Below are positions 3,848 through 38,585 of a DNA stretch of 64,000 nt, piece by piece. How positions within the stretch are numbered: position 1 is the stretch's first letter; every line of letters starts with the position of its first letter. The notes beneath the pieces were generated by a model, which was not told where the DNA came from, did no database searches, and worked only from the letters and a program-made list of their open reading frames with translations. Source of the stretch: an uncultured delta proteobacterium (GTDB lineage: Bacteria > Myxococcota_A > Polyangia > Polyangiales > Polyangiaceae); the NCBI GenBank assembly GCA_963782055.1, contig CAWAIF010000003.1, positions 416,001-480,000 on the forward strand, given 5' to 3'. The position numbers were made by a program, and so were the translations under genes.

Positions 3848-4438
3848 TCACGAGCCGGCGGCCAGCAGTGCGTGGCGCAGCTCCTGCTCGCGCCGCTCCC
3901 GGTGCCACCGCGCGCGGCGCCGGCGGTCATGATCCCGTGAAACCCAGACCCCGTACTCGGCACGCCGGTCCAGCGTCGCCTCGTCGCCGAATCCGAGCCG
4001 GATGCGCATGCAGAGCGCCTCGAGGTGTCTGCGCGCGCTGGCGCACCGCCGCGGGTCGGGCCAGCGCCGCTCGCCCGGCGCAAGCGCGCCGTCCAGCGCG
4101 AGCCCCACGTGCCCCACGAGCACGAGCCCGTAGTACGCCCGCCGGATGCGCCGACGCCCCTCGGGCGTGAGCGCGACGATGACCTCGCGCCCGTCACGCC
4201 GCCGGGTGACGAGCCCGATCGTCTCGAGCGACCGCATCATCTCGCTGATGGTGGCCCGCGCCACGCCGAGCCCGCGCCGCAGGTCGCTCTGGAAGTGTGC
4301 GCACCCCGTCCCGAGCCGGTAGAGCGCATCGAGCACGTCGAACCGAGCCGCCGTCAGCCCCATCGCCCGGAGCGCCCGCCGCGTCAGCCGCAGCGTCGCG
4401 TAATACGCCCGCTTGATCGTGAAGAACACAGGATCCAT
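3848..4438 (-). CDS. MarR-family transcriptional regulator
   Basis: GLTAARFDVL...LGVARATISEMMRSLETIGLVTR...DGREVIVALTPEG winged helix. Start taken at MDPVFF. Confidence 0.8.
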   Translation of the reverse strand: MDPVFFTIKRAYYATLRLTRRALRAMGLTAARFDVLDALYRLGTGCAHFQSDLRRGLGVARATISEMMRSLETIGLVTRRRDGREVIVALTPEGRRRIRRAYYGLVLVGHVGLALDGALAPGERRWPDPRRCASARRHLEALCMRIRLGFGDEATLDRRAEYGVWVSRDHDRRRRARWHRERREQELRHALLAAGS

Positions 4439-32031: not shown

Positions 32032-32715
32032 TCACGCCGCGCGGAGCACGGCCCCGAAGAGGCGTCGCCCGTCGTCGCCGCCGAGGATCGCCTCGCTCAT
32101 GCGCTCGGGGTGGGGCATCAGCCCGAGCACGTTCTTCCTGGGCCCGCCGTAGACGCCGGCGATGTGGGCGACCGACCCGTTCGGGTTGGCCCGCACGTCC
32201 AGGTGGCCGTCGCGGGTGCAGTAGCGCAGGGCGACGCGCCCCTCCGTCTCCAGCTTCGCCAGCAGCTCCGGTGACGCCTGGTAGCGCCCCTCCGCGTGGG
32301 CGATGGGCAGGCGCCACACCTCGTCCAGCTTGGGCGTGAACGGCCCCTTCGCCGCGACCTTCACGTACCAGTCCCCGCACTCGAAGCGCAGGTGGGCGTT
32401 CTGCGTGAGGGCGCCCGGCAGCAGCCCTACCTCGGTGAGGATCTGGAAGCCGTTGCAGACGCCCAGCACCCAGCCGCCGCGCTCGGCGTGGGCGCGGATG
32501 GCGCCGACGATGGGGCTCGCCTTCGCCAGGGCGCCGCAGCGCAGGTAGTCGCCGTAGCTGAACCCGCCGGGGATGGCGACGAAGTCGGTCCCCGCGGGAA
32601 GGGCGGTATCCGTGTACCATGCAACCTTCGTCGGCACCCCGCACACGTCGCGGATCGTGCGGATCATCTCCGCGTCGGCGTTGAGGCCCGGGAACAGCAC
32701 GACGGTCGCCAGCAT
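32032..32715 (-). CDS. purQ: Phosphoribosylformylglycinamidine synthase subunit PurQ
   Basis: [34 protein letters not shown] and GLMPHPER. Confidence 0.95.
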
Positions 32716-32815
32716 CGGGCCCTGCTCTAGCACGGGACCCGCCCCGCCGCGACGCGCGCGGGCCCGCCGCCGACACTGGCGGCGCGGCGCGATACCCGCT
32801 AATCGAGAGCCCCCG

Positions 32816-35188
<2,373 letters not shown>

Positions 35189-35338
35189 GAGGATCCCCCT
35201 GCCCGGTCGCGAGGGCTCATCGACCGGGCCGCGGGCCGCGGCGCGCTCGCGCAGCAGGGGCGCGCGCGGCGGGAGCTGTCCCCGGGATCTGTGATACCCT
35301 TTGCGCTGGGCGATTGCTTGCGCCCGAGACGCCGTCCG

Positions 35339-36325
35339 ATGTCCAAGGCCCCCTCGCCCCTCCTGGGCTACAACAACAACGTCCGGCACAAGAACCGGGT
35401 GTTTCACATCCAGACGGAGGACTCGGGGATCAAGCACCCGCACGTCATCACGCACCTCTTCATGGATGGCGGGCGGATCCTCAAGTCGATCAAGACGAGC
35501 TACGCCGAGCACGTCAAAAACGAGAAGCTGGGCGACGTCGTCCGCCAGATGATGAAGGAGCAGCACAAGGCCATGTTCAAGGCCTTGCGCGATGGCTCGC
35601 TGGACCCGGTGATCGAGGACGCGCTCGTGGGGAGGGTGAGCCGCACCAGCCTGCCGCCGATGCGCCCGCCCGCCGCGACCATCCCGGACGAGGCGCCGCC
35701 CGCCACCACCCGCGAGCCCCCGCTGAACGAACGCACCGACCCGAGCTCCGCGCCGGTCATGCCCATCCCGCCGGCGCAGGACCTGACGCTGGACCTGGAG
35801 GCGCTGGAGCGCGCATCGGAGGAGCCGGTGCCCTCCTTCCGCCCTGCCAACGACCTCCCGCCGCCGCCGGCCAACCTCTTCCGGAGCGCGCAGGGCTCGG
35901 AGCCCGGCACCGGCCGTTACCGCAACCTGCGGGAGGACGCGCCTGCGCCGGAGGAGCACGTCAAGTCGTCGCGCGCGCCGCGCTCTCGCAGCGACCGCCC
36001 CAAGCCCCGGAGCGAGCGCCCGCGTCGGGAGTCAGCGCCCTCGCGGCCCGACCCGCGCGCGGAGCCGCCTTCGGAGCCGCGCCAGCCGGTCGCCGAGCCG
36101 GCCAGCGCGCGGGGACGCAAGGCACCCTCCCGGCCGCCGGCGCGCGCGCCCTCGCGGCCGCCGCCCGCCACCGAGCGCCATGCCCCCGCGCGGCCCGCCG
36201 CCATCTTCGGGCAGGCGCGCCCACAGCAGGCCTCCATCTTTGGAGAGGACATCATCAGCGACAAGTCGCTGGACGAAGTGATCCTCAGCTACCTCGCGGA
36301 GGATCTGGAGGACGGTTCGAAGTAG
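35339..36325 (+). CDS. Hypothetical protein with an ordered N-terminal domain, Pro/Arg-rich linker and short C-terminal motif
   Basis: GYNNNVRHKNRVFHIQTEDSG...THLF...EQHKAM N-terminal domain, C-terminal KSLDEVILSYL and GC3-biased codons. Confidence 0.75.
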   Translation: MSKAPSPLLGYNNNVRHKNRVFHIQTEDSGIKHPHVITHLFMDGGRILKSIKTSYAEHVKNEKLGDVVRQMMKEQHKAMFKALRDGSLDPVIEDALVGRVSRTSLPPMRPPAATIPDEAPPATTREPPLNERTDPSSAPVMPIPPAQDLTLDLEALERASEEPVPSFRPANDLPPPPANLFRSAQGSEPGTGRYRNLREDAPAPEEHVKSSRAPRSRSDRPKPRSERPRRESAPSRPDPRAEPPSEPRQPVAEPASARGRKAPSRPPARAPSRPPPATERHAPARPAAIFGQARPQQASIFGEDIISDKSLDEVILSYLAEDLEDGSK

Positions 36326-36564
36326 CCGCTGCGAGGTGGGACGGGGAGCCTCCCCGGCGCTGTCGTCACGCGACGGAGCGCTAGCACGCTGACAATCCGA
36401 CAGGCTTCGCGCCGCCCCACCGCCTGCCTGTCGAATTGGGGGCTTCAGCCCCCGAAATTGGCCGCTTCCAGAGGGCTGCCTTCCGGATTCCGCGCACTTC
36501 CGGCCTGTCGGGAAGTAGACACCGGATGGCTCTGATTCCTCAAAGATTTTCGTGCGTTCACCCC

Positions 36565-36593
36565 TTGCATCCGCCGCCGGTTGGCCCCATTCT
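36565..36593 (+). promoter_or_regulatory. Sigma-70-type promoter of the candidate sRNA
   Basis: TTGCAT-N17-CATTCT, 7 nt before G36601. Confidence 0.55.
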
Positions 36594-36600
36594 TTTTCTC

Positions 36601-36739
36601 GTACGCAGACACGCAGCTGTAGGGACGAGCCCCCTCCTCCGTTCTTGCAGTGCGACTCGTGGGCTTGCGCGAGCCCCCTCCCCCACCGCGTGAGCCCCCG
36701 CGCCCGGAGTAGCCAAGCTGCTTCGGGCGCGTTTTTTTT
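36601..36739 (+). ncRNA. Candidate small regulatory RNA with three hairpins and two AGCCCCCUCC loops
   Basis: SL1 at 36612-36654 and SL2 at 36661-36697 have stems completed by G-U pairs and near-identical C-rich loops. SL3 is an intrinsic terminator. There is an upstream promoter and no plausible ORF. Confidence 0.72.
36699..36739 (+). terminator. Rho-independent terminator
   Basis: CGCGCCCGGAGTAGC-CAA-GCTGCTTCGGGCGCG followed by T8. Confidence 0.9.
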
Positions 36740-36770
36740 GTCCGCCGTCCACCGGCGCGCCGGGAGCCTC

Positions 36771-38585
36771 TCAGGGCGTGAAGGTGACGTCCATGTCGGC
36801 GGAGCCGCCGCCCGCAGGGACCCCCTGCACCACCGTGCCCGGCACGCTGTTGATGATGCAGTTGCCGGCCCCCTGCAGGAAGTCCGGCACGCCCATCGCC
36901 ACCTTGGTGATGTGGCCGTCACCGCCGATGTCCACGTGAAGCTTGCCCGTATACGCGTCCGCCTTCGCGCCCGAGCGCAGGGCATCGCGGTAGCACCGCG
37001 TGAAGGAGGCGTTCAGTGACATGAGCGCGCCGCGCACGGCGTGGTTGTCGATACCGCCCGTCGTCTGCACGTTGCCGAGCCGGACGCTGCCCGGCCCCGA
37101 CGGGGGCGGAGCTCCCGCCTCGACCGCGGGCGCGGGAGGCGCGACGCTGGCGGGCGGCGCGGCGCTCGCGACCGTGGTGGCGGTCGACGCCGACGCGGCG
37201 GGCGTGCCCGACGCGCGGGCCTTCGCCGACACGACGGCGAGCGGTGTCGCCGAGCCGTGCGGCGCCGCCGACGCGGAGGGGGACGCGATGGCGGCGGAGT
37301 CCACCGGCGTCACGTCGTCGCTGGCCACCGCCACGGGGGAGGTCGCGTGCTCGGCGCTCGCCGACGCGATCGCCGAAGGTGCCGTCCCCGCCTGCGCGCT
37401 GCTCTGGAGCTTCTGGTAGACGAAGTAGCCGCCTGCGCCCACCACGCTGAAGAGGCTCATGGCGAGCAGGTAGCCCGTCCACCGGCGTGGCACCCCCGCG
37501 GGCCGCTCCAGCGCCTCGGTGCCGATGGGCGTGACCTTGCTGGCGGAGGGCTGCATCTGCGCGGCGGCCGCCCTGAGCTGGGCGGCGTCCAGCGGCACCG
37601 TCGCCGCGCTGGCGAGGCTCGCGCGCGCCCCCGCGAGCGCCGGGTTGCTGTCGGTCGCCGTCGGCAGGCTGCGCGGGAGGATGCCGCCCTCGATCGCCGT
37701 CTTGAGGTCGGCGCGCATCTCGCGGGCGCTCTGGTAGCGATCCTCCCGCTTCTTCTGCATCGCCTTGAGGCACACCGCCTCCAGGTTGGCGTTCACGCCC
37801 GGGTAGATCTCCGAGGGCCGCGGCGGCTCCTCGGTCACGTGCTTGAGCACGATGCCGATGGCGTTCTCCGCGTCGAAGGGCACGCGGCGCGTGAGGAGCT
37901 GGAAGAGGATGACGCCCATCGAGTAGAGGTCGCTGCGCGCGTCCAGCTTCTCGCCGCGTCCCTGCTCCGGAGACATGTACTCCGGCGTGCCGACGACGAG
38001 CCCCTTGGTGGAGAGGCGGCCGGCGGTGTCCTTGCCGTCGACGTCGCGCGACTCGCTGATCTTGGCGATGCCGAAGTCGCACACCTTGACGATGTCGCGC
38101 TCGCGCCCCTCGTCGTCCTTGCCCGCGAGGATCATGATGTTCTCGGGCTTGAGGTCGCGGTGCACCACGCCCTGGTCGTGCGCGACGGCGAGCGCGGCGA
38201 GCCCCTGGATCAGGATGTCGACCACCCGCTCGTCCTGCAGGGGCCACGAGGACTTGAGCACCGCGAACAGGTCGGTGCCGTCCAGGTACTCCATCGCGAT
38301 GTAGAGCAGACCATCGGGCTCCTCGCCGAAGTCGATGACGCGCAGGGAGTTGGGGTGGTCCAGCTTGGAGGCGGCCCGGGCCTCCCGCTTGAAGCGCGCG
38401 ACGAACTTCTCGTCCTTGGCGATGTCCCGGTGCATCACCTTGATGGCGACGACCTTGTCGAGCACCACCTGCCGCGCCTTGTACACCGCGCCCATCGCGC
38501 CGGCCCCGACGAAGGACTCGATCGCGTACTTGCCCGCGACCTTGCGTCCGAGGAGCGACTCGTCAGGCCCTTCGCGCGTGGACAT
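36771..38585 (-). CDS. Hanks-type Ser/Thr protein kinase with TM helix and C-terminal AgmX/PglI-like periplasmic domain
   Basis: GAGAMGAV, VAIK, HRDLKPEN, DFG and GTPEYMSPEQ, then a TM helix and C-terminal FTRCY...KLHVDIGGDG...C. Confidence 0.92.
   Translation of the reverse strand: MSTREGPDESLLGRKVAGKYAIESFVGAGAMGAVYKARQVVLDKVVAIKVMHRDIAKDEKFVARFKREARAASKLDHPNSLRVIDFGEEPDGLLYIAMEYLDGTDLFAVLKSSWPLQDERVVDILIQGLAALAVAHDQGVVHRDLKPENIMILAGKDDEGRERDIVKVCDFGIAKISESRDVDGKDTAGRLSTKGLVVGTPEYMSPEQGRGEKLDARSDLYSMGVILFQLLTRRVPFDAENAIGIVLKHVTEEPPRPSEIYPGVNANLEAVCLKAMQKKREDRYQSAREMRADLKTAIEGGILPRSLPTATDSNPALAGARASLASAATVPLDAAQLRAAAAQMQPSASKVTPIGTEALERPAGVPRRWTGYLLAMSLFSVVGAGGYFVYQKLQSSAQAGTAPSAIASASAEHATSPVAVASDDVTPVDSAAIASPSASAAPHGSATPLAVVSAKARASGTPAASASTATTVASAAPPASVAPPAPAVEAGAPPPSGPGSVRLGNVQTTGGIDNHAVRGALMSLNASFTRCYRDALRSGAKADAYTGKLHVDIGGDGHITKVAMGVPDFLQGAGNCIINSVPGTVVQGVPAGGGSADMDVTFTP

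Follow-up and report, generated by a model that had tools for sequence, protein, structure and literature searches.

The window analysed is a 64,000-nucleotide stretch of DNA from an uncultured member of the Polyangiaceae, and the element described here lies in a gap between two convergent protein genes. On the left, at 35339..36325 of the + strand, is a romY homologue (NCBIfam NF053858, 118.7 bits against a cut-off of 50), built of the RomY N-terminal domain, a long Pro/Arg linker and a conserved C-terminal motif. On the right, a Ser/Thr protein kinase gene occupies 36771..38585 of the - strand (Pfam PF00069, E 5e-46). Between them, on the + strand, a small RNA of about 139 nt (36601..36739) is predicted, its start being set by the -10 element of a predicted sigma70-family promoter at 36565..36593 (-35 TTGCAT at 36565-36570, a 17-nt spacer, -10 CATTCT at 36588-36593, with CCC just 5' of the -10). 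The RNA consists of an optional first hairpin, SL1 (36617-36650, extendable to 36612-36654), with the loop AGCCCCCUCCUC at 36628-36639; a core hairpin, SL2 (36661..36697), with the loop AGCCCCCUCCCCCAC at 36672-36686; and an intrinsic terminator-like hairpin (36699..36739) made of a 15-bp stem (36699-36731) and a U8 tract (36732-36739).

The promoter-like motif, both hairpins and the terminator with its U8 had already been located in the preliminary description, and all of them were found in place; a terminator scan of the window also called a terminator-like site at 36699-36731. The gap had been called free of ORFs, which holds for genes and not for reading frames: mechanical ORFs cross it, and a codon-based gene caller puts no gene in 36325-36771. 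A model search of the genome found the RNA element in single copy and no paralogues, the two further matches of about 16 bits being coding sequence. In the 7.6-Mb genome, the motif AGCCCCCTCC is found 21 times, including the two at this locus, and tandem pairs of GCCCCCTCC at most 120 nt apart occur three times, the pair in 36601-36739 being the only one placed in hairpin loops (by eye).

As to the neighbours, RomY is described as boosting the GAP activity of MglB in the polarity module (PMC9481161); the homologue here, at 328 aa, exceeds the 188 aa of the M. xanthus protein (PMC9481161), and its C-terminal motif is present in 123 of 151 family genomes. In several relatives a tRNA gene lies immediately 3' of romY. 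Further upstream (32032-35188), a purQ-like gene (- strand, by eye) is divergent from purL (+ strand, Pfam AIRS domains), so that the two form no operon.

Distribution of the family

The searches brought together about 75 distinct homologues, spread over at least 12 genera of the Polyangiaceae; every named genome record among them is a MAG. Several search routes led to them. BLAST recovered SL2 and the terminator in six of six same-genus genomes, at the same locus each time. A model (R1) built from 15 sequences of SL2 plus terminator matched in 27 of 150 family genomes at E 0.001; by eye, 17 of the 149 other than the host's own are members, one of them doubtful, and later searches found members also in G119, G109, G159 and G041; weak matches in G092, G148, G072 and G136 were rejected as members by eye. 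By a separate route, starting from the DNA 3' of romY, the RNA was found in 10 of 29 further loci, and at one contig end just the promoter. Scanning GTDB with a pattern returned 65 stretches with a bimodal score distribution, 28 at 56 bits or more and the rest at 34 bits or less; the 28 strong matches all came from MAGs titled Polyangiaceae, Polyangiales, Myxococcales, deltaproteobacterium or (one MAG) Sorangium. Among metagenome stretches, 56 of 62 matched at E 1e-6, 54 of these above 61 bits. Left out before counting were L167 and L202 (31.7 bits), L204 (an adapter chimera), identical rows and four members with less than 125 nt of upstream sequence. The members in G084, G141, G146 (L337) and G089 (L300) are doubtful; that of G141 (L058) is counted among the 75.

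The preliminary description had envisaged, as a possibility, a Polyangiales family. The range found is narrower: members occur in part of the Polyangiaceae, and the searches beyond that family, in which few candidates per genome were scored, gave no clear one. At order level, outside the family, nine matches of 25-34 bits were terminators without promoter, and so were four matches of 32-33 bits at phylum level; one match (L347) has a C-rich loop and is of uncertain membership. Two viral pattern matches resemble coding sequence. None of 13 near-complete assemblies (at most 10 contigs) matched model R2, described below, with only 21-150 candidates scored per genome. In a RomY tree built from 90 of 96 rows and just 125 columns, the labelled carriers of the RNA all fall in one 37-row clade with support 98/89. 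Four lone C-rich hairpins lack the family promoter (L337 in G146, L300 in G089, L057 in G084 and L347 in G313), three of them being followed by terminators; L337 lies 3' of an apparent isocitrate lyase gene and L300 lies 5' of a tRNA. These four may be divergent members or look-alikes.

Structure and its conservation

The + strand of 36601-36739 folds at -72.1 kcal/mol (z -6.36), with none of 200 shuffles as good, against z -1.50 and 18 of 200 shuffles as good for the - strand. In a model-fitted alignment of 74 distinct rows, a kind of alignment that is biased toward structure, 94.7% of the cells were paired and both-side changes were seen in 23 of 24 pairs; none of 500 shuffles scored as high and slid controls were 32-58% paired. 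Moreover, a structure-blind MAFFT alignment of 38 two-hairpin members shows compensatory change in 14 of the 24 pairs. Within the model-fitted alignment, the SL2 helix has both-side changes at all eight pairs, with 95% of its cells paired, and the terminator stem at 12 of 13 pairs, the inner seven of which, like the SL2 loop, had been fixed by the search pattern, so that the conservation of these two parts is partly circular. Across the members, G-U cells outnumber A-C cells by 139 to 12 and the sense strand gives the better fold in 68 of 74, which together identify the C-rich strand as the RNA strand.

The loops remain open. The CCUCC motif is unpaired in 73 of 73 SL2 hairpins, and in SL1 its unpaired probability exceeds 0.5 in 38 of 39. 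The SL2 loop is a run of C around one U, longer than the anti-SD core, while the SL1 loops seen most often are exactly complementary to AGGAGGG; the tallies across members comprise CCCCUCCUG, UCCCUCCUA and CCCCUCCCCC types, which have the CCUCC core, and nothing more, in common with cuckoo RNAs. Thus, the stem covariation and loop conservation in relatives on which the preliminary description had staked its proposal are both observed.

SL1 is a different matter. The first reading of the locus took twin C-rich loops as its hallmark, and these turn out not to define the family: all six same-genus genomes carry one-hairpin forms without SL1, and the 70 nt preceding the last hairpin contain CCUCC in 42 of 70 members, of which 38 place it in a loop as judged by eye; among control windows the figure is 9 of 69. 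Neither SL1 nor the promoter had been used in the search pattern or in model R1. Two hairpin modules are present in about 38-41 members and one in many others, with stems that vary and covary; the family thus carries one or two loop modules. Support for the SL1 stem is weaker than for the rest of the structure. RNAalifold did not predict it from the MAFFT alignment of the 38 two-hairpin members, for which reason model R2 was built without SL1 pairs; a hand-set SL1 structure has 77% of its cells paired, against 73% in shuffled and 32-51% in slid controls; and folding of single sequences gives a median z of -1.9 (41 members picked by eye). A few members (L148, L188, L195) have an SL1 without CCUCC.

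Promoter and sigma factor

A TTG[C/T]NN-17-CA site precedes 59 of 70 members, with a single spacing shared by 55, and a stricter form of the motif is present in 48 of 70, against a mean of 1.4 and a maximum of 6 in shuffled sequences. The base before the A of the -10 element is C in 55 of 70 members and T in two, whereas the -10 elements of the tRNA and chaperone promoters of the host genome mostly start with T (by eye). The promoter proposed at the outset, TTGCAT-N17-CATTCT, therefore stands as a motif conserved at fixed spacing, even though a strict sigma70 scan of the window called no promoter. The motif is kept on the 5' side of the RNA in both orientations relative to romY and in relocated copies. 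The best genome-wide matches to a matrix of this promoter precede apparent housekeeping genes. The top match, G000:C3:4320320-4320350, equals the RNA's own site at 22 bits and precedes an HTH-regulator-like ORF; the C-rich hairpin is absent 3' of it.

The CCCCA at the -10 element recalls what we take to be the sigma32 (heat-shock) consensus, and the genome has a sigma32-family gene above the PRK06596 cut-off. Control of the RNA by sigma32 was considered and rejected as unsupported, since the chaperone genes do not use the RNA's promoter motif, the promoters being of the form TTG-16/17-TA at both groES genes and at grpE, and since the best matches to the RNA's promoter matrix precede apparent housekeeping genes. 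The repeats at both groES promoters are presumably CIRCE-like.

Furthermore, a second motif, GAAAC-16/17-CGT[A/G], which we assume to be of the kind found in ECF promoters, occurs in 21 of 70 members (four at other distances), against 0.16 in shuffles. It is present in 9 of the 11 members that lack the TTG site, and it overlaps or replaces the TTG promoter in L163, L174, L178, L193 and other members; the copy in the window has none. A single family thus shows that a whole loop module can be gained or lost and that the promoter type can change. In the host genome, the ECF-like motif lies 5' of 10 genes at a spacer of 16-17 and of none at 14, 15, 18 or 19; several of the 10 are lipoprotein-like and one is ECF-sigma-factor-like, and together they form a candidate ECF regulon as judged from the motif. 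One-hairpin members (L003-L006, L008, L151, L157, L165 and others) have TTTACA about 11 nt before the -35 element and TTGCATTTCGCTACA further 5', an arrangement that suggests transcription-factor sites. Part of TTGCATTTCGCTACA, reversed, is also found 5' of the gene upstream of grpE in G000.

Comparison with known RNAs

The Rfam scan of the window brought no family to its cut-off, as the preliminary claim of novelty had anticipated: the best weak match, over the whole model, is ar14/cuckoo (RF02344), at 20.7 bits against a gathering score of 58.8 (E 0.09), and none of 20 homologue loci scanned yielded a match at E up to 1. RsaE/RoxS, RNAIII, sX13 and RepG pair with G-rich mRNA leaders by means of single-stranded seeds rich in C; they belong to unrelated lineages, with no Rfam similarity detected, and have only the functional class in common with the RNA described here. 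RNAIII, sX13 and RepG are also named in the work on cuckoo RNAs (PMC4615179).

In architecture the family resembles the cuckoo/ar14/CcsR RNAs, which likewise have modular hairpins, variable stems, an anti-SD-like loop and a changing number of modules (PMC4615179, PMC8034643). The loops differ, being CCCCUCCU or CCCCUCCCCC here and CCUCCUCCC in cuckoo RNAs, and so does the build: cuckoo RNAs are described with two to four C-rich loop modules (PMC4615179), whereas the present family has one or two modules with a constant terminator, in single copy. Cuckoo RNAs are alphaproteobacterial, with their main locus beside a DUF1127 gene; here the phylum is another, the neighbour is romY, and neither DUF1127 nor Hfq was found. 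The cuckoo survey covered 2,680 genomes, saw that family in Alphaproteobacteria alone and deemed similar C-rich RNAs convergent (PMC4615179).

The 6C RNA of Actinomycetota, with C-run loops in a high-G+C bacterium, offers the closest working model (PMC6486639). Here, in contrast, the C-runs are split by a conserved U and the phylum is different; the Rfam 6C model gave no match at gathering, none at E up to 10 in the window and none in the 20 homologue loci. A parallel had also been drawn with Pxr of Myxococcus, a myxobacterial sRNA of three stem-loops from an Hfq-less host and with loop-based action (PMC5684412, PMC8538405). The three-stem count is indeed alike; beyond the number of stems nothing of the parallel held. 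Pxr is reported with a predicted sigma54 promoter behind pxrR and from the Myxococcales side only (PMC5684412, PMC8538405), whereas the RNA here has a sigma70-family motif (TTG-17-CA) and sits beside romY and the kinase gene. No Rfam match named Pxr appeared in the window scans or in the 20 homologue loci.

In the literature searched, Pxr was the one well-studied myxobacterial sRNA found, with none found for Polyangiaceae, and no description of the present family was found (mainly open papers). It shows the features of the class of trans-acting C-rich-loop (anti-SD) sRNAs, namely a conserved single-stranded C-rich seed, a structured non-coding unit and promoter and terminator signals of its own, and it would likely work as cuckoo and 6C RNAs do while failing the tests of membership in either. 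The mechanism class is thus already known. The design of cuckoo and 6C RNAs, with open C-rich loops in variable number, apparently arose again, convergently, in another phylum. What is added is a defined candidate sRNA for which about 75 sequences are available, along with a structure supported by covariation and a predicted promoter: a real, conserved sRNA family confined to one clade and apparently not described before, whose functional kind is known and for which expression is predicted from sequence. The searches, which scored 21-150 candidates per genome, turned up no cultured host, so that tests would be confined to metatranscriptomes and heterologous expression.

Proposed mechanism

The reading we consider probable is that of a stand-alone sRNA gene whose CCUCC loops pair in trans with G-rich ribosome-binding regions and lower translation without Hfq. 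A transcript of 90-140 nt would be made from its own promoter and ended by the intrinsic terminator; one or two CCUCC-containing loops, held open on their stems, would pair with the G-rich ribosome-binding regions of several other mRNAs, and this pairing would lower translation of the targets with no involvement of Hfq. The setting suits such a mechanism. GGAGG stands before 855 of the 6256 genes called (own gene caller), the counts for two control windows being 250 and 294, and the 3' end of the host 16S rRNA carries CCUCC, both of which indicate that the host uses SD motifs. No Hfq was found in the genome (97% complete), myxobacteria are described as lacking it (PMC5684412), and 6C RNA is reported to pair through C-rich loops with G-rich stretches of mRNAs, needing no RNA chaperone (PMC6486639).

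Duplex scans of the 6256 called genes identified no conserved target. Matches of at least 8 nt near the start occur in about 145 of the 6256 genes, against 64 in a control window, an excess attributable to general SD use. In two soil metatranscriptome runs, a share of 0.12 of the words of 35300-37200 was found, a figure that counts shared words and is no evidence of transcription.

Alternative explanations

The element might instead belong to the 3' UTR or terminator region of the romY mRNA (or of the kinase mRNA) and act in cis on the stability or termination of that mRNA. It does adjoin romY, at its 3' end, in 66 of 75 loci, and no terminator-like site was called between the romY stop and the RNA, so that read-through from romY is likely in this genome and can also be served by the RNA's terminator on the + strand. 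Against this, the RNA lies on the strand opposite to romY in 42 of the 75 loci (24 are in tandem, and in nine romY lies outside the fetched flank), an inversion that argues against a mere 3' UTR; it is missing nearby in 78 of 90 romY loci examined and present in 12; and in G109, G159, G119 and G041 it has moved away from romY together with its promoter. A purely cis-acting role is accordingly quite improbable, and the independence from the romY 3' UTR implied in the first account is supported by the conserved promoter and terminator signals and by the inversions. Docking of the loops to a protein, as decoy or sponge, or to a G-rich partner RNA, by an independent RNA that leaves ribosome-binding sites alone, is unlikely, while fitting the anatomy equally well. 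The C-run of SL2 reaches beyond the anti-SD core, and the DUF1127 protein CcaF1 is reported to bind cuckoo RNAs (PMC8034643); no DUF1127 (PF06568) was found in this genome, the SL1 complementarity to AGGAGGG points to ribosome-binding sites, and three perfect complements of 11-12 nt to the loops hit coding, repeat-leader and scattered intergenic sites, with no obvious partner by eye. As for the element being a fortuitous structure, a repeat or a gene for a small peptide, hairpins are common at 72% G+C and terminators of similar shape recur across the order, and yet the fold (z -6.4) with its covarying stems, the two separate GTDB score groups, the single copy in the genome, the alignment indels of varied length and the absence of ATG from the RNA make this extremely improbable; conservation has already largely refuted it.

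The last alternative concerns a dispersed repeat carrying a MarR-family gene. About 58 copies (60 tblastn segments) of a unit of about 0.8 kb are spread over the genome, one of them in the window at about 3857-4435 on the - strand (other examples being L221-L225). Its parts are a 5' repeat rich in C, a short inverted repeat, a G-rich stretch containing what we take, from the motif, to be a sigma54-like site, and an ORF of about 198 aa for a MarR-family protein; homology stops at the ORF stop codon and no transposase is evident. The RNA could be a host-encoded silencer of this transposase-free repeat, pairing with the G-rich stretch that abuts the start codon, which would be a bacterial case of a selfish transcription-factor element under RNA control. 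Repeat genes dominate the top predicted duplexes, and the longest perfect match in the 6256-gene set (12 nt, complementary to SL2 and directly next to the ATG) is found in three called copies, a fourth being added by a genome scan. Repeat and RNA also fall in the same RomY clade: of 149 family genomes, 18 have repeat homologues, each with up to 10 matches, and 12 of these 18 carry the RNA, a co-occurrence explained by the shared clade. Eight RNA-bearing genomes of the same draw, on the other hand, have no repeat match at E 1e-10, the leaders of repeat homologues are no more G-rich in RNA-bearing genomes (about 0.44) than in the others (about 0.43, own averaging), and in most copies inspected the sigma54-like site lies about 12-16 nt before the ATG, so that the mRNA is predicted to be nearly leaderless and the G-runs untranscribed. 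Such silencing is thus very unlikely, and pairing with the ribosome-binding regions of several other mRNAs is preferred.

Finally, a 22-nt stretch of the window (36380-36401), between romY and the RNA promoter, is identical to the inverted-repeat region of two copies of the MarR repeat, and similar short palindromes lie 5' of the RNA promoter in G129, G059 and G137. By sequence likeness, the stretch and the palindromes are possibly candidate binding sites for the repeat-encoded protein.
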